Both the position numbers and the translations under genes were made by a program. From contig NC_010628.1 of assembly GCF_000020025.1 (NCBI RefSeq), positions 2,580,001 through 2,612,000 of the forward strand: a stretch of 32,000 nt of DNA. Reading direction: 5' to 3'. The notes under the pieces are model-generated. The model saw only the letters and a list, made by a program, of their open reading frames with translations, was not told the origin of the DNA and did not search any database. This DNA comes from Nostoc punctiforme PCC 73102 (GTDB lineage: Bacteria; Cyanobacteriota; Cyanobacteriia; Cyanobacteriales; Nostocaceae). This document shows, one piece after another, positions 9,339 to 31,568 of this stretch (within the stretch, counting starts at the first letter, position 1; each line of letters starts with the position of its first letter).

Positions 9339-10506
9339 ATGGCAAAAAAGTACATTGTTGACTTGAATGAAGATGAAGTTTCCCAACTGCAATCGATAAT
9401 TAAGAAAGGTAAGCATAAGGCAAGAACCATAAGCCGTGCAAACATTCTTTTGATGGCTTCCGAAGGAGAAACGGATCAAGCGATCGCTAGCATAGTTAGA
9501 GCGCATGTTGCAACAGTGCAACGAATACGAGAAAAATTTGTCATTGGAGGGTTAGATTTTGCTTTAAAGGATGAAGTTCATCCACCAAAACATAAAAAAT
9601 TAGATGAAAAGCAAGAAGCATTTTTGATTGCAACAGCTTGTTCTAATCCGCCAGAAGGAAGAGTGCGTTGGACAATGCAATTATTAGCAGATCATTTAGT
9701 GAACGTTGGTATCATAGATTCAATCTCAGATGAAACAGTACGTCAAACTTTAAAAAAAATGAAATTAAGCCTTGGTTGAAAGAACAATGGTGTATTCCTG
9801 AAGTTAACGCAGAATATGTTTTCCGAATGGAAGATGTGCTGGATTTATACAATGAGCCTTATGATCCTAAACGCCCTGTAGTCTGCTTTGATGAACGTCC
9901 ATACCAATTAGTAGAAGAAGTAAGACTTCCTTTGCCACCACAGCCAGAGCAACCTGAACGTTATGATTTTGAGTATAAACGTAACGGGACAGTAAATTTA
10001 TTCGCATGTTTTCAACCCTTGGCTGGATGGCGGCATATCGAAGTTACAGAACGTCGAACTAAAGCCGATTTTGCTAAACAAATGAAAAATTTAGTAGATG
10101 TTTCCTACCGAGATGCCGATGTTATTCGTTTAGTAGTTGATAACTTGAATATTCATACACCCAATGCATTATATGAAGTTTTTCCACCAGAAGAAGCACG
10201 TCGAATTATTCAAAAGTTAGAGTTTCACTATACTCCTAAACACGCTTCTTGGTGAGCCAGTGCGTTGGGCGGGTTCCCCGACTTGAAGCAACTGGCGAAC
10301 CCGAAGGGCTGAATCAGGTAGAAATCGAATTATCTGTTTTATCTCGCCAATGTTTAGAACGGCGTATTCCTAATGCAGAAACATTAACTTCTGAGATTGC
10401 CGCTTGGGAGAAAAAACGTAATCAGCAAAAAGCTAGTGTTTATTGGGGTTTTCAAACCAAAGATGCTCGCCGAAAAATGGAGCGTTTATATCCAAATTTA
10501 ACATAG
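9339..10506 (+). pseudogene. IS630-family transposase, split into three ORFs
   Basis: ORF1 (9339-9779) holds the HTH domains. ORF2 (9776-10255, frame -1) starts KEQWCIPE and carries the DDE core ([19 protein letters not shown]). ORF3 (10249-10506) carries LNQVEIELSVLSRQCLERRIP. Break 1 is at an A8 run. Break 2 is a 56-nt insertion between ...HYTPKHASW and LNQVEIE. Confidence 0.8.
10253..10308. repeat. 56-nt GC-rich insertion inside the IS630 transposase gene
   Basis: Removing 10253-10308 joins HYTPKHASW directly to LNQVEIELS, the conserved contiguous IS630 motif. The 56-nt length accounts for the observed +2 frame change. The insert contains the stems CGGGTTC/GAACCCG and GCCAGT/ACTGGC. Confidence 0.6.
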
Positions 10507-14452: not shown

Positions 14453-15363
14453 GAGGGTGTTTGAAAAGTGAAAAGGGGTAAAAATTTATGCCAAACGCCG
14501 CACCATGATCCGAATCATGGCAAGGTAAATAAAATTCTCCGCAGTTTCCGGTAAAAGCTCATAGTCTTTATTCAACCGCCGACATCCAGTTAGCCAACCG
14601 AAAGTACGTTCGACAACCCAACGTTTAGGCAACAAAACAAAGCCTTTGCGTTCACGAGGTCGCAGCACGACTTGTACAACCCATCGGTAAAAATCCATCA
14701 CCCACTGCATAAAAGGGTTGCCATCGTAACCACCATCAACCCAGATAAGATTCAGGCGTGATACCTTGTCTCCCATCTGTTTGACCTTCTGGAGTAAAAG
14801 TTTCCCACCAGAGCGTTCATCGACACTAGCCGCACTCACCAACACCGGCAGTACTAGACCCAAAGTATCAACTGTCAAAAATCGCTTGCGTCCTTTGACC
14901 TTTTTGCCTGCATCGTATCCCACTTGTTGAGTGACCATCGCCGCAGTTTTCACACTTTGACTATCAATGATTGCTTCTGTTGGGCTGACTGCTCGCTCAT
15001 TGTTTACTCTCTCCCAGTCTCTGAGTTGATCATGGATACTTACCCATGTTCCATCTTTTCGCCAATTTCGGAAGTATGTGTATACCGTTTGCCAATTTGG
15101 CAAGTCTCCCGGTAAGTTTCGCCAAGTACATCCTTGCGTCAATACATAGAAAATAGCGTTGATTACTTGCCACATCTCTACCACTCTTGGACGACCACCT
15201 GTTTTGCCTACTGGAATTAACGGTTCTAATAATTCCCATTGGTCTTGGGTCAGGTTACTGGAGTATGCTTTACTCATCGCTCTCAATGGTGCTGTATCTA
15301 CTTATTTACAGCTTATGCCCTGAGAGCTTTTTTTACTCAACTTCCAACTTTTCAAACATCCTC
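14453..15363 (-). mobile_element. IS5-family insertion sequence, apparently intact
   Basis: The terminal inverted repeats are GAGGGTGTTTGAAAAGT (14453-14469) and ACTTTTCAAACATCCTC (15347-15363), matching at 16 of 17 positions. They are flanked by a direct TAA (14450-14452 and 15364-15366). There is a single uninterrupted transposase ORF. Confidence 0.85.
14486..15286 (-). CDS. IS5-family transposase
   Basis: 266 aa. LTQDQWELLEPLIP...GGRPR, DSQSVKT, IWVDGGYDG and VVERTFGWL..RRL.KDYE are hallmark IS5/IS1031-group motifs. The true start may be the second ATG (MSKAYSS, 15277). Confidence 0.9.
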   Translation of the reverse strand: MRAMSKAYSSNLTQDQWELLEPLIPVGKTGGRPRVVEMWQVINAIFYVLTQGCTWRNLPGDLPNWQTVYTYFRNWRKDGTWVSIHDQLRDWERVNNERAVSPTEAIIDSQSVKTAAMVTQQVGYDAGKKVKGRKRFLTVDTLGLVLPVLVSAASVDERSGGKLLLQKVKQMGDKVSRLNLIWVDGGYDGNPFMQWVMDFYRWVVQVVLRPRERKGFVLLPKRWVVERTFGWLTGCRRLNKDYELLPETAENFIYLAMIRIMVRRLA

Positions 15364-15828: not shown

Positions 15829-15890
15829 GTTTCCCTTTGTGAGTAAGTCGAATGGCAATTGCTCAAATCGACACCTCGCCAAAAATTTTT
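15829..15890. promoter_or_regulatory. copy B of the duplicated candidate ECF-type promoter repeat
   Basis: Carries the same TGTCGA-N16-TCGAC on the minus strand (15873-15847). On the plus strand, AGTCGA (15846-15851), N16, then TCGAC (15868-15872) ends 30 nt before the sigma-factor ATG at 15903. Confidence 0.45.
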
Positions 15891-15902
15891 TCAAAGTCAG
15901 CT

Positions 15903-17156
15903 ATGACCTCAAACGCACAATCAGATGTAACCCAAGCGATCGCCTCTCTTTATCGTGCTGAGTGGGGTAGGATTGTCGCCACACTCATCCGGCTGATTGG
16001 GGATTTCGATGTGGCTGAAGAGGCGGCGCAAGAAGCCTTTAGTGTGGCTGTTAATCAGTGGCAGTCCACGGGCATTCCCGATCTCCCCCGTGCGTGGATT
16101 ATCAAAACAGCTCGGTACAAAGCCATCGATCGCCTCCGCCGCCGGACGCGGCTGAAGGAAAAACTAGAATGGTATGCTATGTCTGGGTTAATCCCAACGA
16201 CCGAGGAGCCAACCTACGACACTGATGAAATTCCAGACGATCGGCTACGACTGATCTTCACCTGCTGCCACCCAGCACTGGCGATCGAGGCTCAGGTTGC
16301 TCTGACGCTGCGGATGCTGGGCGGACTTGAGACGGATGAAATTGCACGGGCATTTCTCGTACCCACGGCAACGATGGCGCAACGCCTAGTGCGTGCCAAG
16401 CGCAAGATTCGAGATGCAGGTATTCCCTATAAAGTGCCGGACACAAGCGATCTGTCTGCGCGGGTAGACGCAGTGCTGACAGCGATCTATCTGATTTTCA
16501 ACGAGGGCTACGCGGCGACTAGAGGCGAGACGATGGTGAAAGCTGACCTCTGCACAGAAGCGATTCGGCTGGGTCGTCTCGTGAGGATGTTGATGGCACC
16601 GCAACTGCCCTCAGAAGTGACTGCACTGGTTGCACTGATGTTGCTGCACGACTCCCGGCGCGATGCCCGTTTAGATGAAGCGGGCGATCTGGTGTTGCTC
16701 GAAGATCAGGATCGTCGTCGTTGGAACCAACAGCAGATTGCTGAGGCGTTGCCGCTCGTTGAAGAGGCACTGCGGGGCGGAACTGGCCCGTTTGGAGTGC
16801 AAGCTGCGATCGCGGCACTACATTGTCAGGCGGCACGGGCACAAGAAACGGACTGGTTACAAATTGTCCGCCTCTACGATTTGCTCGAACGCTTGCAGCC
16901 CTCGCCCATTGTGTCGCTAAACCGGGCGGTGGCAATCTCAATGGTAGACAGTCCTCAGACGGCGCTTGGACTTATCGATGAACTTGCCCCTCAGCTTGAT
17001 GGCTACCATCTATTTCACGCCGCCCGTGCCGATTTGCTGCGCCGCATCGGAGCCTCAGCGTCAGCCGCACAGAGCTACGGACTTGCGCTCGTGCTGGTAA
17101 AAAATGACAGCGAACGCCGCTTTCTGGAGCGTCGGCTGCGCGAAGTTCAACCCTAA
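15903..17156 (+). CDS. ECF sigma factor with long C-terminal TPR-like extension (ECF42-type / DUF6596-containing)
   Basis: YRAEWGRIVATLIRLIGDFDVAEEAAQEAF (region 2), LTLRMLGGLETDEIARAFLVPTATMAQRLVRAKRKI (region 4), then IFNEGY and a ~200-aa helical extension. I chose the ATG at 15903 because the tracked start at 15852 lies inside the promoter repeat. Confidence 0.85.
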   Translation: MTSNAQSDVTQAIASLYRAEWGRIVATLIRLIGDFDVAEEAAQEAFSVAVNQWQSTGIPDLPRAWIIKTARYKAIDRLRRRTRLKEKLEWYAMSGLIPTTEEPTYDTDEIPDDRLRLIFTCCHPALAIEAQVALTLRMLGGLETDEIARAFLVPTATMAQRLVRAKRKIRDAGIPYKVPDTSDLSARVDAVLTAIYLIFNEGYAATRGETMVKADLCTEAIRLGRLVRMLMAPQLPSEVTALVALMLLHDSRRDARLDEAGDLVLLEDQDRRRWNQQQIAEALPLVEEALRGGTGPFGVQAAIAALHCQAARAQETDWLQIVRLYDLLERLQPSPIVSLNRAVAISMVDSPQTALGLIDELAPQLDGYHLFHAARADLLRRIGASASAAQSYGLALVLVKNDSERRFLERRLREVQP

Positions 17157-17446: not shown

Positions 17447-18793
17447 TTAGACGGCGAAAGGAAATGTCTCTGGTGGTTCAGTTGTTTCCCAAGAGGGAGT
17501 ACGATCGAGTGGTTGCACTCCCGTAGTGTCATCAATGTGGATTACAGCATCAAACTGGTCAGGTAGTCGAGCGTAGAAATAGTGGCTTTGACGCTCGGTT
17601 TCAGGCAGGTAAATTACACCGATAGCTCGCTCTAATCGCGGTTTTTCTAGTCCTGTAACTGCTTGATTTTCTTGTCGTAAATTCAGTAAAAACTGAGGTA
17701 AACCTACCTCATGAAATAAAGCTTCGTAACTGTCAGATAATGCTGGACGAACTTGTTTCAGTTCAGGTACACCACCCCAATCAGAAGCAGCCGTAACTGT
17801 ACCCGTATAAGTTGTAAAGCCTACAAGTACGGTATCATCACCATATTTATCTCGTACCAATTGCCCGACATTGAGTTCACCTGCAATTCCCATATCGGTT
17901 GCTCGTACATAGCCAAGGTGCGAGTTATGCGCCCAAACCACAATCTTTGAACGGTTTCCTTGCTTATCTAAATGGGCGGCGAGGCGATCTAGAGTTTCTG
18001 CCATGTGGCGATCGCGTATGTTCCAAGACAACACCTGTCCAAGAAACATTGAGCGGTAGTATTCCTCGGCGTTCTTCACCAGTCGGGCGTTCTCTTGGGC
18101 ATAGAAAAACTCGTCTTCTGCAACCTGACCATCACGCCCTGCATACTCCGCAATCCGGCGTTGCAATTCCATCAATTGATTAATAACTTCTTGCTCACAA
18201 GACTCGCTCAGACCAAAAGCAGCCGCATATCCATAAGCTTTGGTATCTTCTTCAAAGTGTTCCAAGCAAGAATATCGGTAGCGTGCCCGTTGTGCAGCTT
18301 CTGGGTCCACTTTGTCCAGGTAAGCAAGAACCTCGCTTATTGAAGTATACATACTGTAAAGGTCAAGCCCGTAAAAACCAACTTTGTTTCTATCCTGCGG
18401 TAAAGCATCATTATACTGACGTAGCTAACCGATGAAGTTCACCACATCTGTGTTGCGCCACATCCAAGTTGGAAAACCCTTGAAGCCTGCGATCGCTTCA
18501 GCCGGTGTAGGGTCGTTATTAATTCCCCGTACATATCGATTAATACGGTAGGCATCCGGCCAGTCTGCCTCCACTGCTATAGCCGTAAAGCCTTTTTCTT
18601 GAATCAGACGCTTAGTAATAAGAGCCCGTTGTTCATAAAATTCATGGGTGCCGTGAGACGCTTCACCAATCAATACAAAGCGGGCATTACCAATTAAATC
18701 CATGAGTGGGTCGTAGTCTTGGGCAGTACCTATCAGTGGATGTGCTACTTCATGTAATGCATCGGTTAGCTGTGTTGCTGTTGCTTCTGACAT
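17447..18793 (-). pseudogene. erythromycin esterase family protein interrupted by one in-frame TAG
   Basis: ORFs 18425-18793 and 17447-18352 are in the same frame. Codons 18353-18424 are open (LRQYNDALPQDRNKVGFYGLDLYS). The only interruption is the TAG at 18425-18427. Family motifs: FVLIGEASHGTHEFY, VVWAHNSHLG. Confidence 0.8.
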
Positions 18794-19014
18794 AATAGTT
18801 AGTTATCAAAAGTTTGTGTTCTTGATTATGATTTTAGATACTGTTAAAGGAGCGGTAGTTTTAACGCGATGAGCTACGCCCCACCCTAGGCGATCGTAGA
18901 TAATAAATCTAATGCTTCCAAATTGCTGTTATCATACTTTCATCTTAAAAGTGACTAAGCATATTATTCTCTTACTATAGTTAGAGAATTTAAACTATAA
19001 GCTTGCCAAAAAGT

Positions 19015-19245
19015 TTAATTTTTAAGTGTATTTTTTAATAAAACTGTTTTTTCACTCCAAGGTAAATCATGAATCGTTCGCCCATGATTTTGATGTATAC
19101 TTGGAGTGATTTTTCCACATGAAGGACAACTACAAGAGTTCACAAATTTTTCTATTGTTATAATTATTCCTATATCTTCTATCTCTTGACAATCTAATAC
19201 TTTCATATCGGGAAGATTCAGTATTTCCTCTACGAGAAATTTCAT
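19015..19245 (-). pseudogene. ISL3-family transposase N-terminal fragment
   Basis: EILNLPDMKVLDCQEIE...CPSCGKITPSIHQNHGRTIHDLPWSEK matches the zf-ISL3 N-terminus. The ORF ends after 76 aa with no DDE domain. Confidence 0.65.
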
Positions 19246-19670
19246 AGCGATGTCTACGACGGGCTACGCCTACGCCTAAAATTTTGGTAGATTACAATTT
19301 ATATTGTAGCATCAGCTCTATTTGATAATATTTGAAAGTTCGTAAACTACTGCAATATCTAAATTTTAACTATTTTTTATATTAAATTGTAGTTGTTAAA
19401 ATTTAATTGATTTTGATTTTTACCATAAAAATAGCGGAAAAAGCAAACTCTTGTGAGGATTGCTTTTCTCTTGAGCTTCAAACATGTCACAAATGTTCAA
19501 TAAGTTTTCTGTGCCAAGTCTATCGAGCTTTTCGTTTCCAGCTTTTCATCCGCACTAGTTGCACCTTTGACTGCCCGTTCGCTGATTTTGAAATGGTGAG
19601 AGGAATTAAAGCCTTGAGGAGTAATGCTTAAGACGATTTTTGAAGCAAAGGCATTAAGGATTAGTATTCA

Positions 19671-19742
19671 ATAATGGAATGTATCATTAGCTTCTGTCTT
19701 AGAAACTCCGAACAACATTCCTAATACTTGAAATGTCGGCAT
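19671..19742 (-). pseudogene. possible remnant of an IS5-like (HTH_Tnp_4 / DDE_Tnp_4 type) transposase
   Basis: The 24-aa peptide MPTFQVLGMLFGVSKTEANDTFHY resembles the HTH segment (..TF..LG..FGVS.S.AN..FH.) of plant-transposase-like IS5 transposases. It is a very short fragment. Confidence 0.3.
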
Positions 19743-19744
19743 CT

Positions 19745-19800
19745 GTAGTAAATAAAATAAAACATACTTCCCGCATTTCTTACAAGTGAGAAATGCGGGG
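19745..19800 (-). terminator. candidate rho-independent terminator (minus strand)
   Basis: An 11-bp perfect stem, CCCGCATTTCT (19770-19780) / AGAAATGCGGG (19789-19799), with an 8-nt loop. On the minus strand it is followed by a T-rich tract (GTTTTATTTTATTT). It lies 65 nt downstream of the 19865-20122 ORF. Confidence 0.5.
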
Positions 19801-19864
19801 GAGTCTATTCAAAAATCAAATAGGATTCCTATATACCTAAACAATAATAGCCTCAAGCCAATAT

Positions 19865-20122
19865 TTATCTACTGCGGCACGAAGTATTGAATACTAAAAC
19901 TAAAATTATTCCACCTATAAATGAGATGAAAAGTAGCATCCAAAGCATTCTAGCCTTATCGTTGACGATATCGTAAGAATCTTTCCTAAAGCTCAAAGAA
20001 AGCAAGCTAAAAGCAGCAAGACCATTTACTAAAAAAGAAATGCTTAATGCAAGAACTAGAACAGTACACATCACATCGCTTTGTAGATTCAGCATAATTT
20101 TTACTGGTAAAACTAAATACAA
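19865..20122 (-). CDS. hypothetical small membrane protein
   Basis: 85 aa with two strongly hydrophobic segments (CTVLVLALSISFLVNGLAAFSLLSL and LWMLLFISFIGGIILVLVF), followed by a terminator-like hairpin. No homology recognised. Confidence 0.4.
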   Translation of the reverse strand: MYLVLPVKIMLNLQSDVMCTVLVLALSISFLVNGLAAFSLLSLSFRKDSYDIVNDKARMLWMLLFISFIGGIILVLVFNTSCRSR

Positions 20123-20340
20123 TTAATCAGTATATTTAAACACAAAAAAATAGAAATCAAGGGCTAGGGCGATACCGATACTGTAAGGGAGGAATGGCAC
20201 TAAAAAAGCGCAAATCCTTAATATGATTAGCTTTTGGGTGTAGATGAACTTCAATATCATTAGGGGTTTCCAGAAAATAAAATGTCCAGCTGTCGATGAA
20301 AGCCGCTCAGTCCTTGGGTTTAGCCAAAATATATTTGATA

Positions 20341-20455
20341 CGGTGAAGCAGCGCGGTCTTCTCCCAAAGTGAGAGGCTAGCGCCTTTGCGGAGCGTCTAC
20401 GTAGAGAAGGGGGTTTCCCCCATGAGCGACTGCACCAAGCCCGGAGGGGCTGGGC
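20341..20455. repeat. GC-rich structured element embedded in AT-rich intergenic DNA
   Basis: About 115 bp of much higher GC than its flanks. Contains the GGGGGTTTCCCCC palindrome (20409-20421) and CTTCTC...GAGAAG pairing. Its 3' half loosely resembles the 56-nt insert at 10253-10308. Confidence 0.4.
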
Positions 20456-21006
20456 ATTTTATTATTACCTGTAGGTGCCTTAACAGCCGAGTCTGTTGAC
20501 TACTACGGGAACTCTATAACCATAGAGGTCGCCCTCCTCTGTTACCGTACAAAACTTATATGCACTAGTCTTTTGGTACATTCCATAACCTAATTGAGAA
20601 GTTATGCTTGCTCTGTAGACTGATTATTTAGAAATGCGATCGCACTTGGTAATTATTAATATCTTCAGTATTTTTTCGGATACTTTTAACAATAAATGTA
20701 ATATATAGTTAAAATGCTCAATAAATACGTAAGTGCCTCAGAGTACACTATTAATTTTGTTTTATTAATAAATCAACGAGTTATTGCCAGCATAATATGC
20801 AAATAAGTAGAAATAAATAATGAAAAGATGGCGTAAGTGGGTACAGAACGCAAAAATAGTGGATTACGGTTTCCATAACTCACCCTATAACAGTTTCCTC
20901 CTTACTTGAGTCAGTTAATTTTTAAGCGAAATCACCTTTAATTATGGTGAATTTTTAGCATAAACTAAAGTTTTTAATAATCCGATTTATAATTATCCAA
21001 ACATAT

Positions 21007-22926
21007 ATGAAACCTGTATTAATATCGCTTCTTGAACCATTAAATAAACTTTCGGCATCTGAACAAATGGTTTTAGAAAAAATAATGCAACCTGTTAGTT
21101 TTTCAGCCGGAACTTATATATTTAAAGAAGGTTCATTCGCGGATAGCTGTTATATCCTTGAAGAAGGTATAGTACGGATTGAAACAGCATCAGAAAGTAG
21201 TTCTAATTTTGTAGTTAATTATTTGGAAGCTGGGACAATTTTTGGAGAAATAAGCTTATTAGATAAAATGCCTCGTTCGGCTACTGCTTATGCCCAAACA
21301 AATATAATAGCTAAAAAAATACTAATTCAAGAGTTAGAAATATTACTAGAAACTTCGCCAAGAATATTGATTTGTCTCTGGGAAATGTTTAGAAAGGCTG
21401 CTCCACTTGGAGTTCGTTCTTTAAATGAACTTACAATTAAAAAAAATCACTTTGTGATAAACCCAGAAGTGGAAGTAATGTTAGATAAAGCTTTACTAGC
21501 TCAAAAAGAAATTCAAACTTGGTCTGAAGAACGTATAGATGCCTTATTACTGGTAATTGCTTCATCGATTGCACAACATGCCGAATCATTAGCAACAGCA
21601 ACAGTAAAGGCTACTCGTGTTGGGGATATTTTGGATAAAGTTACTAAGAATAAAATTGCTAGCTTAGGTATTTACCGCTCGCTGGTTGGCAAATCTGGAT
21701 GCGGGTTTATCTCGAATAATAAAATTAATAATGTTTGTGAAATAGCAAGTCCAATGGGAATTATTTTTGGAATGATTCCCATGACTAACCCAGTTGCAAC
21801 AGCGGTTTTTAAAGCTTTAATTTGTATAAAAAGTCGTAATGCACTGATTTTAAGTTTCCCACTTTCTACTAAGAATGTTGGCACGTTAGTTTGTGAAATT
21901 ATTCAGGAAGCTTTAATTCGGCAAGATGCACCTGTAGAGCTGATTCAGTGGTTAAAACATCGCAGTTCCCGCGAACAAACAGAAATATTAATGAAGCACA
22001 AAAACGTCTCTTTAATCTTAGCAACAGGAGGTGCGAGCATGGTGAAAGCTGCCTATAGTTCAGGAACTCCGGCAATTGGTGTAGGTCCTGCTAATACTCC
22101 TACCTTAATTTGTGCGGATGCAAATATTCAACATGCTGCCCGCACTATTATTGTAAGTAAATCATTTGATAATGGATTAATTTGTGGTTCTGAACATAAT
22201 TTGATAGTTGATGCACGCGTTAGGAAGAACTTTATTAAAGTATTAGAGCAAGAAGGCGCGGCAATACTTACGCATGAAGAAAAAAGCTACTTTAGCACAG
22301 TTGCTTTTGAAGATAAATCGAATCGATTGCAAGCAAAAATTATTGGTCAGTCAGCGGCTAAAATTGCCGTTATGGCAAATATTAAACGCGATTATCACAT
22401 TAAATTAATTATAGTCCCGAATGAATTTCTAAGTTTAGATAATCCCTATGCTTATGAAAAGATGGCACCGATATTGAGTTTATTTACAGTTCAAAATGAG
22501 ATTGAAGGTATAGACCTTTGTCGGTCGATACTACAGATAGAAGGGAAAGGACATACAGCAATTATACACACGAAAAATAAGGCAGTGGTGAGAAGATTTG
22601 GTTTAGAAATGCCAGCCAGTAGAATATTAGTAAATTCGCCGGGGGTACATGGAATCATAGGTCTTACAAGTGCTTTAGACCCATCCTTCACATTAGGGTG
22701 CGGCACATTTGGGGGAAATTCAACTACTGATAATGTTACTTATAGCAATCTTTTGAATTTAAAACGGGTTGCATATTATCAAGCACCAAAATTTTTAGAC
22801 CCAGAGATATTTAAAAATACATATCCCCAGTGGTTACTGCAATTGCTAAACTTATTAAACTTTTTAAAACTCAATGCTTTAGTGACATTTATATCGCAAC
22901 GAGTTTCGATTCAGTTGAGAAGATAA
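21007..22926 (+). CDS. cyclic-nucleotide-binding domain fused to an acylating (CoA/thioester-dependent) aldehyde dehydrogenase, AdhE-N-terminal/EutE-like
   Basis: The first ~125 residues form a CAP-type cNMP domain with an intact phosphate-binding cassette, FGEISLLDKMPRSATAYA (21241-21294). The rest aligns by eye with the AdhE ALDH domain: IFGMIPMTNPVATAVFKALICIKSRNALILS, LILATGGASMVKAAYSSGTPAIGVGPANTP, the catalytic-Cys motif FDNGLICGSEH (Cys codon 22183-22185), and GCGTFGGNSTTDNV. Confidence 0.85.
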   Translation: MKPVLISLLEPLNKLSASEQMVLEKIMQPVSFSAGTYIFKEGSFADSCYILEEGIVRIETASESSSNFVVNYLEAGTIFGEISLLDKMPRSATAYAQTNIIAKKILIQELEILLETSPRILICLWEMFRKAAPLGVRSLNELTIKKNHFVINPEVEVMLDKALLAQKEIQTWSEERIDALLLVIASSIAQHAESLATATVKATRVGDILDKVTKNKIASLGIYRSLVGKSGCGFISNNKINNVCEIASPMGIIFGMIPMTNPVATAVFKALICIKSRNALILSFPLSTKNVGTLVCEIIQEALIRQDAPVELIQWLKHRSSREQTEILMKHKNVSLILATGGASMVKAAYSSGTPAIGVGPANTPTLICADANIQHAARTIIVSKSFDNGLICGSEHNLIVDARVRKNFIKVLEQEGAAILTHEEKSYFSTVAFEDKSNRLQAKIIGQSAAKIAVMANIKRDYHIKLIIVPNEFLSLDNPYAYEKMAPILSLFTVQNEIEGIDLCRSILQIEGKGHTAIIHTKNKAVVRRFGLEMPASRILVNSPGVHGIIGLTSALDPSFTLGCGTFGGNSTTDNVTYSNLLNLKRVAYYQAPKFLDPEIFKNTYPQWLLQLLNLLNFLKLNALVTFISQRVSIQLRR

Positions 22927-22930
22927 AATT

Positions 22931-25873
22931 ATGAGTAATCCAATACGTGTTGTCTGTCTGGGTGGTGGCTATGTTGCCATGTGGTTAACGAAAGCACTGC
23001 GAAATGCCATTATATATAAAAAAGTTGAGATGATTGTTATCAGTCGGGATAATTATCATACTTATCACGGGTTTATTGCTGAGATGTTGACTGGGAAAAT
23101 TCAACCTAGTCAGGTTGCAAGTCCAGCTAGAAGAATATTTGAACCCGCATATTTTTATAATGCAGAAATTGAAAACATAGACGTTATCAAGCAAGTTATT
23201 ACTACTAGTCGTTCTCTAGATGGAAGGCAATATGAAGTATCTTATGACCATTTGGTGATTTCATTAGGTTCGGTGGATGACTTATCGAGGTATCCCGGTA
23301 TTGCTGAACATGCAATGAAATTAAAATCTTTTAATGACTGTTATAAAATCCGCAATCACATCATTCAAATGTTGGAATTAGCGGAAATTGAAACAGACAC
23401 AGAAGAGCGATCGCGTTTGCTAACTTTTGTAGTTGCTGGAGGGAATTATGGTGGTATTGAAGTTGCAACTGAGTTAGCTGACCATTTCCGTCTTTTAATT
23501 AAAAAGGAGTATCGGCAAATTGCACCTGATGAAATCAAGGTAATAGTTATTCATAGCGGAGAGCGTATTTTATCCGAATTAGTACGACGGTTTCCAGAGT
23601 TGGTAAGGTATGCTGAAAACTTTCTCCATGACGAATTCTCTAATTTAGAAATTATTACTAATACTCGTATTGTTGCCGCGACACCAGAAGAAGCAATACT
23701 TAGTAATGGAGAGCGAATTTCAACTCGGACAATTATTAGTTGTACGGGAACAGCACAATCACCTTTATTAGACAAACTACCGTTGGAACGGGATAAATAC
23801 GGCAAAATTGTTACAGATGAGTTTGTCCGAGTCAAAGGAACAAATAATGTTTGGGCAGGAGGAGATTGTGCTGCGGTTCCTTTACCAACAGGAGGTACTT
23901 GTCCACCCTTAGCTATTTATGCTTTGACTTGTGGCTATCAAATTGGTGGCAATATTCTACGTTCGATCGAAAGTAGAAAGCTAAAAGCTTATAAATTTAC
24001 TGGACTTGGGGATGCTGTTTCTCTGGGAAATCGTCACGCGATCGCACATTTAAAAGGTGTGCCATTATACGGGTTTAATGCTTGGGTTGCTTGGAGAATA
24101 GCTTTGTTTATTTTTGTTCCATCGTGGGAGCGAAAGCTTCGACTTCTAGTCGATTGGTCAATGTGGCCTTTTTTAGGTCGAGATATTATCAGCATGAAAG
24201 TGCAAGAAAAGCAAAGTTTAAAAAAAGCATATTTTCAGGCAGGACAAGTCATTGTTAAACAAGGAGATATTGGTCGTTGCTTGTATTTAATCCGCAATGG
24301 AGAGGTGGAAGTTTTACAAGAAATGTCGAATGGGGAAACAATTATTCAAACTATCGGTTCTGGCGAACACTTTGGTGAAACAAGTGTCATAGAAAATAGT
24401 CCTCACATTGCAACTGTCCGTGCTAAAACAAGCGTGCAATTAGTGGTGATTGATAGAGAAGAAGCATTATTATTGAGTAATTCTTTGTCTGTGTTTAACG
24501 ATACTAATCGCTTATTATCATCCGATACATTTGTCAAAGAAAATATTGATGAATATCATGCGATCGCATCAGACATCCCCAGAGGGAGTATCGCACCAGT
24601 TAACTCGGTCATGTCTGCGACTTTAGAAGCAGCTCCTTGGCAAGAGTTACCATCAAAAGCACCAGCAAGGATTGGTAGCAGCCGCATATTAACAAGATCG
24701 GAATCATCGCAGCCTAGTAAATTCGGTTTTTTGGGTCTAGCGTCAGTAGCTGCACTTATTGCCTTATCAAGTACTACTACCTACCTATTGACCTCTAAAA
24801 AAGTTACTACTCCCGAACCGAAGGACAATGCGATCGCATCCCAAAAGTTAGAAGTAATCGCACTAGGACGCTTGGAACCAGCTGGAGAAATTATATCTGT
24901 AGCTGGTCCTGTGGGGGAACGAATTGGACATTTGGAAGTTGCGGAAGGAGATAACGTTAAAAATGGACAAATTTTAGCTTATTTAGAGAGTTATAACGAA
25001 AGACTGCAAACCCGAAATTTAGCCGCAGCTAAAGTTCGTGAAATCCAAGAACAAATTAAAACTGATACATTACTGCGTCAAGTTGAAGCTGAAAAATCTC
25101 AGTCAGAAATTGAACAAGTTAATACACCCCAACTCCTACAAATTAAATCACAGCAAGCTTTGATTCGCAAAGCAGAAGTGGAATTAAGCGAGGTAGTTAA
25201 AACACGCGATCGCTTTCAATATTTGTCTCAAGAAGGTGCGATCGCCAAACAAGATTTTGATAATAAGCAATTAATTGTCCGTCAAGCTGAAGAAAATCTC
25301 AATCAAGCAAAAGCAACTTTAGAACAGTTAGCTCAAGCTCGCTCATCTAATATTCGCACTGCCCAAACAGCTTTTAAAGCTTCCCAAGTTAATTTAGCAA
25401 GAGTGGACAGTCATAGCGGACTAGAACCTGCCAAAAATAATCTTGCTTTAGGACAAGCTCAGTTGGAACGTTCAATTATTCGCGCTCCTCAAGATGGTAA
25501 AGTTCTCAAAGTTTTTGCCCACACTGGTGAAGCAATTTCTCAAAAAAGTATTTTACAGCTAGGTGATACACAGCAAATGTTTGCTGTTGCAGAAGTATAC
25601 GAAACCGATGTGAGTAAAGTCAAATTTGGTCAGGAGGCAGTTATTACTAGTCCAGCTTTTACTAAACCAATTAAAGGAACTGTTGATAAAGTTGGCAATC
25701 TCGTATTTAAAAATAACACGATCGGCGATGACCCAACAGCAGAAAAAGATGCCCGAATTGTCGAAGTCAAAATTCGTTTACAACAAAGCGAGCAGGTTGC
25801 TAATTTTAGTAATCTTCAAGTCGATGTCCGAATTCAGTTAAATAATACGGGGAAAATAGGTGCGAAACCGTAA
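22931..25873 (+). CDS. fusion protein: type-II NADH dehydrogenase (NDH-2)-like flavoenzyme + cNMP-binding-like domain + TM helix + DevB-family membrane fusion protein
   Basis: About aa 1-425 carry VVCLGGGYVA, VVAGGNYGGIEVATELAD, WAGGDCAAVP and an NDH-2 C-terminal membrane-association region (WRIALFIFVPSWERKLRLLVDW). About aa 430-545 form a CAP-type fold (VKQGDIGRCLYLIRNGEVEV...FGETSVIENSPHIATVRA). The TM helix FGFLGLASVAALIALSSTTTYLL lies at about 24722-24790. The remainder is HlyD/DevB-like (VIALGRLEPAGEIISVAG, coiled coil, IIRAPQDGKVLKV, ARIVEVKIRL). Confidence 0.85.
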   Translation: MSNPIRVVCLGGGYVAMWLTKALRNAIIYKKVEMIVISRDNYHTYHGFIAEMLTGKIQPSQVASPARRIFEPAYFYNAEIENIDVIKQVITTSRSLDGRQYEVSYDHLVISLGSVDDLSRYPGIAEHAMKLKSFNDCYKIRNHIIQMLELAEIETDTEERSRLLTFVVAGGNYGGIEVATELADHFRLLIKKEYRQIAPDEIKVIVIHSGERILSELVRRFPELVRYAENFLHDEFSNLEIITNTRIVAATPEEAILSNGERISTRTIISCTGTAQSPLLDKLPLERDKYGKIVTDEFVRVKGTNNVWAGGDCAAVPLPTGGTCPPLAIYALTCGYQIGGNILRSIESRKLKAYKFTGLGDAVSLGNRHAIAHLKGVPLYGFNAWVAWRIALFIFVPSWERKLRLLVDWSMWPFLGRDIISMKVQEKQSLKKAYFQAGQVIVKQGDIGRCLYLIRNGEVEVLQEMSNGETIIQTIGSGEHFGETSVIENSPHIATVRAKTSVQLVVIDREEALLLSNSLSVFNDTNRLLSSDTFVKENIDEYHAIASDIPRGSIAPVNSVMSATLEAAPWQELPSKAPARIGSSRILTRSESSQPSKFGFLGLASVAALIALSSTTTYLLTSKKVTTPEPKDNAIASQKLEVIALGRLEPAGEIISVAGPVGERIGHLEVAEGDNVKNGQILAYLESYNERLQTRNLAAAKVREIQEQIKTDTLLRQVEAEKSQSEIEQVNTPQLLQIKSQQALIRKAEVELSEVVKTRDRFQYLSQEGAIAKQDFDNKQLIVRQAEENLNQAKATLEQLAQARSSNIRTAQTAFKASQVNLARVDSHSGLEPAKNNLALGQAQLERSIIRAPQDGKVLKVFAHTGEAISQKSILQLGDTQQMFAVAEVYETDVSKVKFGQEAVITSPAFTKPIKGTVDKVGNLVFKNNTIGDDPTAEKDARIVEVKIRLQQSEQVANFSNLQVDVRIQLNNTGKIGAKP

Positions 25874-27020
25874 AAATGCTCAAACTTGGGATGGACCTGC
25901 ATTAGCATGGCTGAATTTAATTCACGCTAAAACTCGATTTTTTGTCGCACTCTCTGCAATTGGTTTCGCGGTTACTCTGATTTTTATGCAGTTGGGATTT
26001 TTAGGCGCTGTACTCAAAACAGCTACTTTCATTTACGATAATCTTAACTTTGACATTGTTTTAATTTCTCCAAAATCGCTCGAAGCTAGCTATACATTAC
26101 CATTTTCTCGGCAACGTTTATATCAAGCAGCAGCAATTCCTGGCGTTGCTTCGGTTGCACCTTTTTATATTTCATTTAAACAATGGCGCAATCCAGAAAC
26201 TAAGTTCACACGTTCAATATTGACAATGGGCTTTAATCCTAAAGATAAAGTATTTAAAGACCCAGAGATTAATAAATATAGACTAGAACTGCAAAGCCAG
26301 GATAAGTTATTAATCAACCGCTATTCACGACCTGAATTTGGTTCACGGCAAGTTGGTTTAAAGACTGAACTGGGAGGTCGTGATATTGAAGTAATTGGAT
26401 TTTTTTCGATGACAAATAGTTTGCGGGCAGATGGGACTGTCGTCATGAACGACCAAAACTTTATTCGTCTTTATACTGGTCGTTCATTTAATGATATTAG
26501 TTTAGGATTAATTAATGTAAACGATCGGGACAATATCAATAAAATTATCCAAAATCTAAAGCAAGTATTACCAAAAGATGTCGAAATTCTAAGCCGCGAA
26601 CAAGCTGGAGAAAGAGATAAAAACTATTGGCTAACATCAACTTCTATCGGCATAATTTTCGGTACAGGGGCAATCATGGCTTTTATTGTTGGAACTGTAA
26701 TAGTTTATCAAGTTCTTTATAGCGATATTACAGAGCATCTCAGCGAATATGCCACATTAAAAGCAATTGGTTACAGTAACTTTAGATTATCTAAAGTAGT
26801 TTTACAAGAAGCAGTTATTCTTGCTTTTCTTGGTTTTATACCTGGATTTTTTATTAGTTCAAGTTTATATATTATAACTCGTTTAGCTACAGGTTTACCA
26901 ATGGAAATGAGTTATGGACGCGCTAGTTTTGTTTTCATATTAGCTAATATTATGTGTTCTATATCTGCTTTATTGTCGTTACGCCAAGTTTTAACAACTG
27001 ACCCCGCTGATGTTTTATAA
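25860..27020 (+). CDS. DevC-family ABC exporter permease (FtsX/MacB-like), paralogue 1
   Basis: 386 aa. The N-terminal LAWLNLIHAKTRFFVALSAIGFAVTLIFMQLGF is DevC-like. It has a large periplasmic loop and a C-terminal FtsX-type 3-TM bundle (LKAIGYSN...). The GTG start overlaps the upstream stop by 14 nt. Confidence 0.85.
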   Translation: MRNRKNAQTWDGPALAWLNLIHAKTRFFVALSAIGFAVTLIFMQLGFLGAVLKTATFIYDNLNFDIVLISPKSLEASYTLPFSRQRLYQAAAIPGVASVAPFYISFKQWRNPETKFTRSILTMGFNPKDKVFKDPEINKYRLELQSQDKLLINRYSRPEFGSRQVGLKTELGGRDIEVIGFFSMTNSLRADGTVVMNDQNFIRLYTGRSFNDISLGLINVNDRDNINKIIQNLKQVLPKDVEILSREQAGERDKNYWLTSTSIGIIFGTGAIMAFIVGTVIVYQVLYSDITEHLSEYATLKAIGYSNFRLSKVVLQEAVILAFLGFIPGFFISSSLYIITRLATGLPMEMSYGRASFVFILANIMCSISALLSLRQVLTTDPADVL

Positions 27021-27022
27021 AT

Positions 27023-28207
27023 ATGCTCTTATTTAAGTTTTCTTTAGCTTGGATTAACTTAGTTCATAATAGACAACGCTTTATCACAGCATTAGGTGCA
27101 GTCGTTTTTGCCGTTGTACTAATGTTTATCCAATTAGGATTTCGGAATGCAATGCTTCAAAGTAGCGTCGAGTTTATCAATCGCTTGGATGCAGATTTAA
27201 TCCTAACTAGCCGTCATCGATACGTTAGCTTTTATGACTATACTTTTAAGAAAAATAGATTATATCAAGTCCAAGGATTTGATGGAGTGCAAGCAGTTTC
27301 ACCATTGTATTTAGCTATTGGGATTTGGAAAAATCAAGGGGGAGTACGTCAACGTCCCATCAGAATTTTTGGATATAACTTAAAATCTCAAACTTTTTCA
27401 ATTCCCGACATTCCTAATTATATTAATGCTTTACAGTTTCCAGATACTGTGATAGCAGATAAAAAATCTCGTCAAGATTTTGGCGATATTACACCAGGAG
27501 TAGAGGTAGAATTACTCGACAGAAAGGTGAAGATTATCGGAAACTTTCAGTTAGGGACTGATTTTGTTGCTGATGGAAACTTAATTACTAGCGACCAGAA
27601 TTTTCTAAGAATATTTCACGGACATCCTTACGGGGATTTTGGTAACATTCGTACTTCCTTAGATGATGTTGATTTTGGATTGATTAAGATTAAATCGCAC
27701 GATTTTAATGTCAAAAACTTGGTAGAAATCCTCAATAAATCTTTGCCTCCAGATGTTGTAGTCATGACTAAAAAAGAATTTATAGAGCAAGATATCAAGT
27801 ATTTTGATAAATCTACTCCCATTGGTTTTATGTTTGGTTTAGGAACAGTAATTGGCTTTTTTGTAGGCATAATTGTTGTTTACAATATTATTTATACAGA
27901 TATTAATAATAACTTACCTCAATACGGCACTCTCAGAGCCATCGGATATTCTAATTCATACTTGTTTGCCATTATTGTATTGCAGTCAGCAATCTTAGCA
28001 ATAATTGGTTTTTTTCCAGGCTTATTTGCAAGCATATTAATTTATCAGGTTATGGCAAAATCTACTGGCTTATTAGTGGAGATGAGTCTTGGTGTTGCCT
28101 CCTTGGTAGCAATTCTCACGATTTTTATGTGCATATTAGCAGGATTAATCGGTGCCAAAAAAATACAAGGACTAGACCCAGCAGAAGTATACGAGCAAAA
28201 AACATGA
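27023..28207 (+). CDS. DevC-family ABC exporter permease, paralogue 2
   Basis: 394 aa with the same architecture (LAWINLVHNRQRFITALGAVVFAVVLMFIQLGF ... LRAIGYSN). Starts 2 nt after the stop of paralogue 1. Confidence 0.85.
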   Translation: MLLFKFSLAWINLVHNRQRFITALGAVVFAVVLMFIQLGFRNAMLQSSVEFINRLDADLILTSRHRYVSFYDYTFKKNRLYQVQGFDGVQAVSPLYLAIGIWKNQGGVRQRPIRIFGYNLKSQTFSIPDIPNYINALQFPDTVIADKKSRQDFGDITPGVEVELLDRKVKIIGNFQLGTDFVADGNLITSDQNFLRIFHGHPYGDFGNIRTSLDDVDFGLIKIKSHDFNVKNLVEILNKSLPPDVVVMTKKEFIEQDIKYFDKSTPIGFMFGLGTVIGFFVGIIVVYNIIYTDINNNLPQYGTLRAIGYSNSYLFAIIVLQSAILAIIGFFPGLFASILIYQVMAKSTGLLVEMSLGVASLVAILTIFMCILAGLIGAKKIQGLDPAEVYEQKT

Positions 28208-29526
28208 GAATTGAACCAATAATTAAAGTTAGCAAAATTAATCATTATTACGGTACGGGACAACTGCGAAAGCAAATCTTGTTTGATATCAGTACAGAAA
28301 TTCAAGCCGGAGAAATTGTGATTGTAACTGGACCTTCGGGTTCGGGAAAAACTACCCTATTAAATTTAATTGGTGCGTTGAGTTCAGTTCAAGAAGGTAG
28401 CTTGACAGTTTTAGGACAAGAGTTAAATCGAGCTAATAATAAACTATTAGAAAATGTCAGAAAAAATATTGGTTTTATATTTCAAGCTCATAATTTACTA
28501 ACTTCTTTAACAGCTAGCCAGAACGTACAAATGTCATTAGCTTTGCATGGGGGTATTTCTAAACGAGAAGCTGAACGAAAAGCGCAAGCAATACTAGAAA
28601 TGGTAGGACTAGGCGAACGGGTTAATTATTATCCCAATCAAATGTCTGGAGGACAAAAACAAAGGGTAGCGATCGCACGCGCTCTTGTTACAAACCCTAG
28701 TGTCATTCTTGCGGACGAACCCACAGCTGCTTTGGATAAAAAAAGCGGGCGAGATGTTGTCGAAATGCTTCAATATCTAGCAAAACAGCAAGGTTGTGCA
28801 ATTTTATTAGTGACTCACGATAACCGCATCCTTGATGTTGCAGATAGAATTATTAGTTTGGAAGATGGATTTCTTACCTCATCAAAAAATACATCTTCAA
28901 ATAATTCTCATCGGTTGGCAAGTTTAAAAGGTGAGTTGATTAATCATGTTGAAGATTTGTCATTAAAAGATTTTTTAAGTTTACTTCAGCAAGTGACAGG
29001 AGAATTTCAAAGTTTTTTAAGCTTAATCGATAATGAAGCTACAGGAAAGTGTTTAGAAGAAATTATCGAGGCAATAACTTTGAAAATTACACATTTATTA
29101 CAAGCCGAGCGAAGCACTATTTTTATAGTAGATGATACTTCTGGAAACTTGTGGTCAGAAATTATTCAGAGTAATCGCAAAAAAATTTTAAAAGTTGGCA
29201 TAACTGCTCATTTTGGTGTTGCTGCTCATGTGGCAGCAACTAGAGAATGCTTGAATATTCCCATAGCTTTGCAAGATTACCGCTATAGCCCAGCAATTGA
29301 CGAACAAACTGGATATCAAACTCGAAATATTTTATGCTTACCAATTTTAAATAGTCAAAGTAAAGTCTTGGCAATTTCACAAGTTTTAAATAAGATTGGT
29401 AATAACTGTTTCGATCGTAAAGACGAGCAGCTATTAGGTGAATTCTCTCAACAGATTTCAGCTATTTTTGATATGTGGTGTCATTTACAAAAATTACATA
29501 AAACCTCAATAAGTGGTAAATATTAA
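28204..29526 (+). CDS. DevA-family ABC ATPase with C-terminal GAF domain (NKFDE-type)
   Basis: The ATG at 28204 overlaps the upstream TGA (ATGA). Walker A GPSGSGKTT, signature MSGGQKQR, Walker B ILADEPT, H-loop VTHD. After about aa 225 comes a GAF-like domain (AERSTIFIVDD..LWS...GVAAHVAATRECLNIP..YRYSPAIDEQTGYQTRNILCLPIL) with NKIGNNCFDRKDE at 29389-29427. The 5' extension in the ORF track (from 28129) lies inside the upstream gene. Confidence 0.85.
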   Translation: MRIEPIIKVSKINHYYGTGQLRKQILFDISTEIQAGEIVIVTGPSGSGKTTLLNLIGALSSVQEGSLTVLGQELNRANNKLLENVRKNIGFIFQAHNLLTSLTASQNVQMSLALHGGISKREAERKAQAILEMVGLGERVNYYPNQMSGGQKQRVAIARALVTNPSVILADEPTAALDKKSGRDVVEMLQYLAKQQGCAILLVTHDNRILDVADRIISLEDGFLTSSKNTSSNNSHRLASLKGELINHVEDLSLKDFLSLLQQVTGEFQSFLSLIDNEATGKCLEEIIEAITLKITHLLQAERSTIFIVDDTSGNLWSEIIQSNRKKILKVGITAHFGVAAHVAATRECLNIPIALQDYRYSPAIDEQTGYQTRNILCLPILNSQSKVLAISQVLNKIGNNCFDRKDEQLLGEFSQQISAIFDMWCHLQKLHKTSISGKY

Positions 29527-31307: not shown

Positions 31308-31568
31308 ATGAAAAACAAAAATTTAGAAGCAATTCAAGCTTGGTTCATTTCTTACATTGCTGATTTATTAGAAATAGAACCCGCACAGATAGACATCCAT
31401 AAATCCTTTGATAGCTATGGCTTAGATTCAGTTAGTGCTATTACTGTTGTAGGGGATTTAGAAGATTGGTTGGGGTTTAGTATTCCTTCTGAAATAGTTT
31501 ACAAATATCCCAGCATTGAGGCTTTGAGTCAACATTTAGCTCAAAATAACGGTTCTACCGATCCCTGA
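31308..31568 (+). CDS. acyl carrier protein (phosphopantetheine-binding)
   Basis: 86 aa with a GLDSVSAI motif providing the Ser attachment site within a typical ACP helix-II context. Starts 58 nt downstream of the FAAL gene. Confidence 0.8.
   Translation: MKNKNLEAIQAWFISYIADLLEIEPAQIDIHKSFDSYGLDSVSAITVVGDLEDWLGFSIPSEIVYKYPSIEALSQHLAQNNGSTDP

Follow-up and report, generated by a model that had tools for sequence, protein, structure and literature searches.

A stretch of 32,000 nucleotides of Nostoc punctiforme PCC 73102 (contig NC_010628.1, positions 2,580,001 to 2,612,000, hereafter called the window) encodes a protein in which a cyclic nucleoside monophosphate (cNMP)-binding domain is fused to an aldehyde dehydrogenase (ALDH). 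This protein, cNMP-ALDH, is predicted to be a cyclic-nucleotide-gated, thioester-forming (acylating) ALDH. Its gene opens a seven-gene operon, and its relatives belong to a conserved module composed of cNMP-ALDH, an NDH-2-like flavoprotein having its own cNMP domain (NDH2-cNMP), and a patatin lipase that also bears a cNMP domain (cNMP-patatin). Acylating ALDHs and cNMP-regulated enzymes are known kinds of protein, but no description of the module was found, and full-text literature searches for the cNMP-ALDH fusion, a cNMP-bearing NDH-2, the operon or the accessions returned none. The domain composition, the catalytic and ligand-binding residues, the operon structure and the conservation of partners across phyla are all observed, and are presented below.

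The product of the open reading frame (ORF) at 21007-22926 is identical to ACC80742.1 (WP_012408743.1, UniProt B2J642) of N. punctiforme PCC 73102. Its database names are generic, “aldehyde dehydrogenase family protein” or “Cyclic nucleotide-binding protein”, and its 90% cluster includes Calothrix sp. PCC 7507, Desmonostoc muscorum and N. punctiforme UO1. A cNMP domain preceding the ALDH had been proposed from the letters of the window (the original prediction), and was recovered well above the Pfam cut-off (Table 1). Among solved structures, PKA RI-alpha chains match this domain with an E value of about 1e-13. In the AlphaFold2 (AF2) model, computed with an alignment of 83 relatives and having a mean pLDDT (per-residue confidence) of 89.8, the beta-barrel and helices of the sensor occupy aa 11-116. 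The phosphate-binding cassette, FGEISLLDKMPRSATAYA, shows the Gly-Glu and Arg-(Ser/Thr)-Ala pattern, and its residues G80, E81 and R90 are invariant among the 83 family members.

In the second half, the Aldedh domain (PF00171) was matched at aa 153-545 (E 2.4e-20, 73 bits for a cut-off of 23). The top NCBIfam match was the N-terminal half of AdhE (PRK13805, 447.8 bits at aa 149-590, below the equivalog cut-off of 951), aligned over model positions 10-451 of 872 only, and neither Pfam nor NCBIfam revealed the iron-containing alcohol dehydrogenase (Fe-ADH) domain. Also below their equivalog cut-offs were TIGR02518, describing the acetylating, EutH-type acetaldehyde dehydrogenase (422.1 bits versus 620), and the SauS model (312 bits); the EutE/PduP-type model gave 200 bits. 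When solved structures were searched by sequence, the best match was the acetylating ALDH of Geobacillus (G. thermoglucosidasius; 5J78, E 3.9e-95), followed by Listeria 3K9D, AdhE ALDH domains and C. kluyveri SucD, with PduP enzymes far weaker. Foldseek on the AF2 model placed 5J7I/5J78 (TM score 0.92, 40% identity) and SucD (0.93, 32%) ahead of AdhE, and PduP structures were only 21-25% identical. The LuxC family was not matched in a Pfam scan admitting E values up to 0.01, which gave Aldedh and cNMP_binding only. These matches assign cNMP-ALDH to the clade of AdhE ALDH domains, acetylating ALDHs and SucD. The label “AdhE-type” used in the original prediction is therefore apt at the level of the clade, and goes too far beyond it, since the alcohol dehydrogenase domain is missing and the scores stay short of equivalog level.

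The catalytic cysteine had been expected in the context FDNGLICGSEH, at codon 22183-22185, and was located there by alignment with 5J78 and 3K9D. The two cofactor segments announced with it, ATGG (aa 339-342) and GVGPANTP (aa 358-365), are present and invariant or nearly so. The alignment of 83 relatives, which could have undone the prediction, showed that Cys393 and the cofactor motifs are kept: invariant positions are C393, H516, E484-K485, A339-G342, G358, V359, N363 and P365. The spacing of Cys393 and His516 is 123 residues, versus 118 for Cys269 and His387 of the C. phytofermentans propionaldehyde dehydrogenase, for which C269A and H387A mutant structures are listed; His516 is thus probably the counterpart of His387. 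Because the cassette, catalytic and cofactor residues are invariant, both the sensor and the ALDH look functional.

The fusion is real, as had been suspected, and widespread instead of special to the Nostoc locus. Both Pfam domains (cNMP_binding and Aldedh) were found in all 120 best matches drawn from a collection of 5.8 billion proteins, mostly at about 50% identity and with a length of about 595 aa. Scanning GTDB species genomes gave roughly 556 loci, with relatives in Chloroflexota, Gemmatimonadota, Actinomycetota (many Nocardioides), Planctomycetota, Verrucomicrobiota, Proteobacteria, Bacteroidota and Acidobacteriota; the only further cyanobacterial one was in a metagenome-assembled genome (MAG), at 80% identity. 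When family size was estimated with aa 1-220 as query in a representative library, proteins with multiple cNMP repeats dominated the ranking, and at least roughly 30 representatives (at 50% identity) had a single match running across sensor, linker and start of the ALDH. A family-specific conserved core, about 50% identical, is common to the phyla.

Some relatives carry additional domains on the same chain. Two of these fusions include a flavoprotein, NDH2-NDH2_C-cNMP-cNMP-ALDH (P0227, which adjoins a cNMP-patatin) and cNMP-ALDH-Pyr_redox_2 (P0381), and two others add a short-chain dehydrogenase/reductase (SDR) domain (cNMP-ALDH-SDR, P0407) or an aminotransferase (cNMP-ALDH-Aminotran_3, P0428). 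Other architectures were FHA-cNMP-ALDH and a START/polyketide-cyclase-like lipid-binding domain on cNMP-ALDH (P0448 and P0404, the latter protein being truncated). In Gemmatimonadales, proteins of about 911 aa (P0126, P0136 and relatives; compare locus L016) have a ketopantoate-reductase-like (ApbA) domain on the same chain as NDH2-NDH2_C-cNMP, which brings a third NAD(P)H-dependent oxidoreductase into the module.

Genomic partners were surveyed in 85 non-redundant loci, using phmmer with the proteins of the window and of relatives, and counted over the 51 loci having at least 4 kb of flank on each side. An all-against-all clustering of neighbouring ORFs was discarded, due to long antisense ORFs in high-GC DNA and to single linkage through the cNMP domain. 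The most conserved partner was the NDH-2-like flavoprotein, present in 28 of the 51 loci; in 26 of these its gene is on the same strand and no more than 2.5 kb away. It had been overlooked in the original prediction, although in Nostoc its gene, including a cNMP domain of its own, lies 4 nt downstream of cNMP-ALDH. Partner flavoproteins match the Nostoc NDH-2 part with E values of 1e-120 to 1e-177 (about 50-58% identity), and outside cyanobacteria they are about 545 aa long and end with a canonical cNMP domain. A cNMP-patatin lipase of the NTE type (neuropathy target esterase) was found in 21 loci, 19 of which also had the flavoprotein, and 17 loci had none of these partners. Coupling is not obligatory, as two of three sampled NDH2-cNMP genes were without ALDH. 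In a Nocardioides operon (L025), cNMP-ALDH, cNMP-NTE_Ploop-patatin and NDH2-cNMP follow each other with overlapping starts and stops, and a locus reached from the NDH-2 side (L094) is another typical operon of this overlapping kind. In Nocardioides and relatives, two conserved genes for which neither Pfam nor NCBIfam gave a match (8757-9893 and 15052-16122 in L025) flank this trio, in 10-11 actinobacterial loci. In L025, subunits of a CoA-transferase come next.

A Pfam census of the 111 immediate same-strand neighbours of family ALDH genes counted cNMP_binding (27 neighbours), Pyr_redox_2 (14), Patatin (12), Aminotran_3 (3), FAD_binding_4 (3), AMP-binding (2), Guanylate_cyc (2), Fe-ADH (1) and wax-ester synthase (1). 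Large cyclase-AAA-TPR proteins of the adenylate/guanylate cyclase type adjoin the ALDH on the same strand in three loci (L048, L086 and L060), and a neighbouring protein in L050 includes a cyclase domain. In three soil loci a class-III aminotransferase, whose best NCBIfam match is PigE, an enzyme that aminates aldehydes, is encoded directly downstream of the ALDH, and one neighbour is an APH-aminotransferase fusion.

In Nostoc, the operon order is cNMP-ALDH, a 980-aa NDH2-cNMP-DevB fusion, DevC, DevC, DevA, a fatty acyl-AMP ligase (FAAL) and an acyl carrier protein (ACP). The FAAL and the ACP named in the original prediction are confirmed, and the exporter is of the DevBCA type. Gene boundaries are tight or overlapping: 4 nt between the first two genes, overlaps between DevB and the first DevC and, as ATGA, between the second DevC and DevA, with DevA and FAAL 1 nt apart. 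A cyanobacterial MAG (L012), at 80% identity, has all seven genes in synteny.

Table 1. Features of the cNMP-ALDH gene and its operon. Coordinates are those of the window.
Feature	Coordinates	Strand	Evidence
cNMP-binding / acylating aldehyde dehydrogenase fusion, 639 aa	21007..22926	+	ATG start; TAA stop 22924-22926
Cyclic-nucleotide-binding domain, aa 30-115	21094..21351	+	PF00027 E 3.5e-18, 65.8 bits vs cut-off 27.5
Phosphate-binding cassette GEISLLDKMPRSATA, aa 80-94	21244..21288	+	G80, E81, R90 invariant in family
Long linker helix, sensor to enzyme, aa 118-147	21358..21447	+	AF2; block-mean pLDDT 94, 88, 67 (lower confidence)
Acylating ALDH domain, aa 149-590	21451..22776	+	NCBIfam, PDB and Foldseek matches
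Catalytic nucleophile Cys393 codon (TGT) in FDNGLICGSEH, aa 387-397	22183..22185	+	Alignment with 5J78, 3K9D; invariant
Invariant His516 codon (GHT motif)	22552..22554	+	Family alignment, 83 members
Cyanobacteria-specific C-terminal extension, aa 596-639	22792..22923	+	Leucine-rich predicted helix, aa 608-638
NDH-2-like flavoprotein (aa 1-425) + cNMP (aa 434-511) + DevB membrane-fusion protein (aa 642-968), 980 aa	22931..25873	+	Pfam, NCBIfam, solved structures
DevC permease 1 (MacB/FtsX type)	25860..27020	+	TIGR01185 360 bits, cut-off 290
DevC permease 2	27023..28207	+	TIGR01185 315 bits, cut-off 290
DevA ABC ATPase + C-terminal GAF domain	28204..29526	+	TIGR02982 352 vs 296; ATG overlaps DevC2 stop
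FAAL, 573 aa	29528..31249	+	PF00501 + PF23024; ATG 1 nt past DevA stop
Stand-alone ACP, 86 aa, GLDS serine motif; last gene of operon	31308..31568	+	Sequence

The 980-aa fusion is ACC80743.1 (B2J643). Pfam gave 102 bits for Pyr_redox_2 in its flavoprotein part and 26.7 bits for NDH2_C, just under the cut-off of 27.7; the solved NDH-2 structures 9MQY and 4NWZ match this part at E 2e-29, and FSP1 more weakly, at 1e-9. Its cNMP domain (24230-24463) has a degenerate cassette, FGETSVIENSPHIATVRA, in which His replaces the invariant Arg of the relatives' RRTATVRA, and in a related cyanobacterial sequence the cassette Glu of this domain is changed to Gln as well. Its ability to bind cyclic nucleotides may have been lost, or its ligand may be a different one. 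A hydrophobic stretch, FGFLGLASVAALIALSS, precedes the DevB part, and by eye is a putative transmembrane segment. The DevB part itself scores 294 bits with TIGR02971 (cut-off 129), so that DevB, DevC and DevA models are all at or above their NCBIfam cut-offs. In the GAF domain of DevA (about aa 285-420), NKIGNNCFDRKDE fits the signature NKx5Fx3DE (NKxnFx3DE), a motif typical of cNMP-binding GAF domains. Such DevA-GAF fusions are widespread, with more than 120 clusters at about 50-57% identity. For the FAAL gene, the top NCBIfam model was the generic NRPS/PKS (non-ribosomal peptide/polyketide synthetase) PRK05691, at 616 bits versus 4090, and the FAAL models PRK05850 (461 bits) and FadD32 (443 bits) were both below their cut-offs (775 and 975, respectively). 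In a near-identical JGI assembly (L010, 8221-9942) the FAAL is called as two genes of 129 and 390 aa, and it is a single gene in the window and in L011; the split reflects either an assembly frameshift or strain variation.

On the contig matching the window exactly, no PKS, NRPS or thioesterase follows the ACP, with which the operon ends. For this reason, cNMP-ALDH is the only candidate enzyme for the acyl-ACP. Carrier proteins accompany the family elsewhere, and an ACP was confirmed in Nostoc, in the syntenic MAG, and in two further loci. In Chloroflexi (L005), the order by Pfam is cNMP-ALDH, ACP (PP-binding), fatty-acid-type AMP-binding ligase, Pyr_redox_2 and a phosphopantetheinyl transferase (PPTase, ACPS). 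In the alphaproteobacterium Albimonas (L044), phmmer detected homologues of these five proteins in the same order, together with a homologue of the cNMP-patatin and, divergently, homologues of an MMPL pump and of a LolA-like protein. MMPL pumps were present in five loci of the family. The ALDH-ACP-ligase-PPTase arrangement arose independently and repeatedly.

The exporter type provides another link. A paralogous cluster of Nostoc sp. DedSLP04 encodes a PKS, a FAAL-ACP-thioesterase fusion, a lipase and a DevB-C-C-A(GAF) pump, and its thioesterase is in the position held by the ALDH in the N. punctiforme operon. Another DevA-GAF pump adjoins an NRPS. Exporters of this type therefore serve lipid products primed by FAAL and ACP and, by analogy, the place of the off-loading enzyme would be taken by the ALDH in N. 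punctiforme. The adjacent PigE-like aminotransferases, the P0428 and P0407 fusions, and the wax-ester synthase and Fe-ADH neighbours suggest that an aldehyde is handed on.

We tentatively favor a function in which acyl-ACP made by the FAAL is off-loaded reductively to an aldehyde under cNMP control, and place its likelihood somewhat short of even. The FAAL would adenylate a free fatty acid and load it onto the ACP of the operon. The acyl group would then pass from its phosphopantetheine thioester to Cys393 of the ALDH, and reduction with NAD(P)H would free the fatty aldehyde, an off-loading like that of LuxC or of the R domain in carboxylic acid reductases. When cAMP or cGMP binds, the N-terminal domain would shift the long linker helix and relieve an autoinhibition, access to the active site or domain closure being the controlled step. 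The invariant cassette residues and the cyclase genes next to the ALDH speak for such cNMP signalling. Finally, the DevB-DevC-DevC-DevA exporter, with DevB fused to the NDH-2-like part and the ATPase to a GAF domain, would remove the aldehyde or a derivative. Acyl-ACP as substrate, the reductive direction, nucleotide allostery and export of the product are the elements that we infer.

Several observations weigh against this proposal. Among solved structures, the nearest relatives use C2-C4 acyl-CoA (acetyl, succinyl) as substrates, and not long chains or ACP. A fatty-acid ligase was found in about 5 of the 85 loci only, and the literature searches gave no paper on the cNMP-ALDH fusion. In the Nostoc NDH2-DevB protein the cassette Arg of the cNMP domain is lost, which makes uniform cNMP control of the whole operon doubtful. 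Above all, the most conserved partner is a flavoprotein of the NADH-oxidising type, by its presence in 28 of 51 loci and in the P0227 and P0381 fusions. This fits an ALDH that produces NADH better than one that consumes it, and makes the NDH-2-like partner the weak point of the reductive reading. The reaction might indeed proceed in the opposite direction, an aldehyde derived from lipids or amines being oxidised to an acyl-thioester (CoA or ACP) and NADH, which the flavoprotein would reoxidise by passing electrons to the quinone pool, as part of a cNMP-gated detoxification or catabolism of aldehydes during lipid turnover. We regard this as a serious rival, somewhat less likely than reductive off-loading. 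The same-strand adjacency of the NDH-2-like gene in 26 fully flanked loci, the two one-chain fusions just mentioned, and the resemblance of the flavoprotein to bona fide NDH-2 structures (E 2e-29), with an NDH2_C match of 26.7 bits for a cut-off of 27.7, all point to it. So does the pairing of an aminotransferase with an acylating ALDH, which is the classic catabolic order from amine to aldehyde to acyl-CoA (an APH-aminotransferase fusion being among the neighbours), and so do the EutE-type and SauS relatives, enzymes that work oxidatively. However, oxidation assigns no function to FAAL, ACP and PPTase in the loci of Nostoc, L005 and L044, does not account for a dedicated exporter, and sits poorly with the two of three sampled loci in which NDH2-cNMP is found without ALDH.

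It is rather improbable that the protein is an ordinary short-chain acetylating acetaldehyde dehydrogenase under cAMP control, acting, for example, in phospholipid head-group, ethanolamine-type or fermentative metabolism and placed next to FAAL, ACP and exporter by mere co-regulation. Its best solved and curated matches are acetylating (5J78, 40% identity; TIGR02518, 422 bits), ligase and ACP are both missing from many family loci, and the patatin/NTE partners, which deacylate phospholipids according to Pfam, could feed head-group catabolism. Yet these scores lie under the equivalog cut-offs, the family has a specific core about 50% identical across phyla, the Nostoc operon is tightly coupled, and the ALDH-ACP-ligase-PPTase arrangement has a repeated origin. 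Finally, a nucleotide-triggered defence or suicide module of the Pycsar/CBASS kind, in which membrane damage would come from cNMP-binding effectors, the patatin among them, with an accessory or non-catalytic ALDH, is very unlikely. PADLOC gave weak matches to PycTIR and Pycsar effector models, and cNMP-patatin partners are common, but the matches span the shared cNMP domain only (E 1e-5 to 1e-13) and, apart from the generic patatin, no effector part matched any defence protein in PADLOC. The catalytic residues are invariant, the neighbours are metabolic, and no Pycsar-type cyclase gene is present within the window. A defence system was therefore rejected, the PADLOC matches being to generic cNMP or patatin domains only.

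Returning to reductive off-loading, a broader version of it can be formulated, although we consider it unlikely: a second-messenger-triggered “lipid to aldehyde” pathway found across phyla, in which cAMP or cGMP would directly activate a patatin lipase, an acyl-ACP reductase with an ALDH fold that is supplied by FAAL and ACP, as well as an NDH-2-like flavoprotein, and which in Nostoc would be wired to a GAF-gated DevBCA pump. In that case, a signal would cause cells to produce and secrete fatty aldehydes, or derived amines or alcohols, and the enzyme would be without precedent both as an acyl-ACP reductase with an ALDH fold and as an aldehyde dehydrogenase gated by cNMP. In bacteria, cAMP and cGMP are mostly viewed as acting via transcription factors. 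Here, the sensor is attached directly to a central redox enzyme, to its flavoprotein partner and to a lipase, in a set that recurs from Actinomycetota to Cyanobacteria. Should the nucleotide gate catalysis, this would be a post-translational switch on lipid and aldehyde metabolism, testable in the genetically tractable N. punctiforme PCC 73102. Should an ALDH-fold enzyme off-load acyl-ACP as aldehyde, it would represent a new type of fatty-acid reductase for biofuel and oleochemical engineering, and the many FAAL-ACP pairs and DevBCA paralogues that are orphans in cyanobacteria would gain a candidate function.

About 44 C-terminal residues of cNMP-ALDH are confined to the cyanobacterial subclade, where they are well conserved, and are missing from the relatives of about 595 aa. 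AF2 models this tail as a single helix (aa 608-638, pLDDT about 70). The original prediction had described it as amphipathic and hydrophobic, and as a possible membrane anchor next to the exporter. The tail exists and is hydrophobic, but hydropathy and hydrophobic moment do not support the anchor. A transmembrane tail was rejected: the highest Kyte-Doolittle mean over 18 residues is 1.49, short of the usual transmembrane threshold of 1.6, which no window of the whole protein reaches. A classical amphipathic anchor was rejected too, as the alpha-helical moment is 0.06-0.23 over the leucine-rich stretch (windows starting at 605-620). Rather, polar residues occur at every third position (LLQLLNLLNFLK), with a moment of 0.5 at 120 degrees; the periodicity is of 3 residues (LLx), and not 3.6. 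Because the tail arose together with the NDH-2-like-DevB fusion, docking on the NDH2-DevB membrane protein is as plausible as lipid binding.

Upstream of the operon, 18794-21006 is an AT-rich leader of 2.2 kb with no ORF above 85 aa and unremarkable repeats. It contains a 76-aa ORF with a CxxC pair (19015-19245, minus strand), possibly a transposase remnant, two short hydrophobic ORFs at 19865-20260 (minus strand) and a GC-rich patch at about 20400-20560. Rfam revealed no RNA element in it, at gathering score or at E values up to 1. Control of the operon by cAMP-CRP was discarded, as no CRP-type site (TGTGA-N6-TCACA) is found upstream of it; the window as a whole has 11 matches, versus 15.4 expected. 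Next to the leader, a gene of the erythromycin-esterase family is split into ORFs 17447-18352 and 18425-18793 (minus strand), which match the Pfam profile separately at 1-57 and 86-358, and is likely a frameshift or a pseudogene. Many transposase genes or fragments lie at 3228-6190, 8825-10255 and 14486-15286 (IS630-like HTH and DDE_3 twice, a split DDE_5, and an IS4/5 DDE_Tnp_1). GC content is patchy, 33-37% across 19-23 kb versus up to 57% at 16-17 kb, and the whole gives the impression of a mosaic made of acquired DNA. A gene for a hexameric tyrosine-coordinated heme protein (HTHP; 2269-2607) and one for an ECF-type sigma factor with DUF6596 (15852-17156, in the segment of 57% GC) are unrelated to cNMP-ALDH.

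Compared with known systems, cNMP-ALDH is closest to the acetylating ALDHs and the ALDH part of AdhE (5J78/5J7I, Listeria 3K9D, E. coli AdhE 6AHC, SucD 8CEI; TM scores 0.92-0.93, 31-40% identity), with which it shares the catalytic Cys, the GHT histidine and the ATGG and GVGPxN motifs. Its N-terminal cNMP domain, linker helix and C-terminal helix set it apart from them, as does the lack of Fe-ADH, and its partners are lipid-handling and cNMP-binding proteins instead of ethanolamine, propanediol or fermentation genes. In LuxCDE, the hydrolase LuxD frees a fatty acid, LuxE activates it onto a protein thiol, and LuxC releases the aldehyde via an acyl-cysteine. The patatin of the relatives might correspond to LuxD, FAAL and ACP to LuxE, and cNMP-ALDH to LuxC. 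The likeness is functional only, as our system has a separate ACP, a predicted cNMP gating and no luciferase. Carboxylic acid reductases (A-PCP-R with a PPTase) and PigE offer a parallel in adenylation, a phosphopantetheinyl carrier, reductive release and optional transamination, and the PPTase genes of the L005 and L044 operons, as well as the adjacent or fused PigE-like aminotransferases, follow the same logic. In contrast with these reductases, the releasing enzyme has an ALDH fold and a Cys nucleophile, instead of an SDR-type R domain, and the components are separate proteins.

The reaction proposed here, from acyl-ACP to fatty aldehyde, is that of Aar in the Aar/Ado alkane pathway. Aar belongs to a protein family that is not known to be related to cNMP-ALDH, is without a sensor domain and is not exporter-linked. 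The original prediction had contrasted the fold of cNMP-ALDH with that of this cyanobacterial acyl-ACP reductase, and the distinction from the Aar/Ado route (reviewed in PMC10114076) is supported. To judge from references given in the same article, N. punctiforme also has Aar. As enzymes of aldehyde formation and use, this 2023 review of the fate of fatty acids in cyanobacteria names Aar/Ado and non-acylating ALDHs only (PMC10114076).

Like the DevBCA exporter of heterocyst glycolipids in Anabaena, the downstream genes pass the DevB, DevC and DevA cut-offs. They differ from it by the NDH-2-like part and degenerate cNMP domain at the N terminus of DevB, by the duplication of DevC, and by the GAF domain of DevA. 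The NDH2-cNMP-DevB triple fusion was found only in four cyanobacterial protein clusters. Finally, the mycobacterial cNMP-acetyltransferase Pat (Rv0998 / MSMEG_5458), in which cAMP relieves autoinhibition, is a precedent for allostery without a kinase. As in Pat, a metabolic enzyme and a cNMP domain are joined directly, and the Pat model NF058543 matches the sensor part of cNMP-ALDH (36.6 bits, NCBIfam), whereas the output domain is an ALDH and not an acetyltransferase. NTE-type cNMP-patatins, a group that includes the mycobacterial NTE homologue Rv2565, are frequent neighbours of the cNMP-ALDH family.

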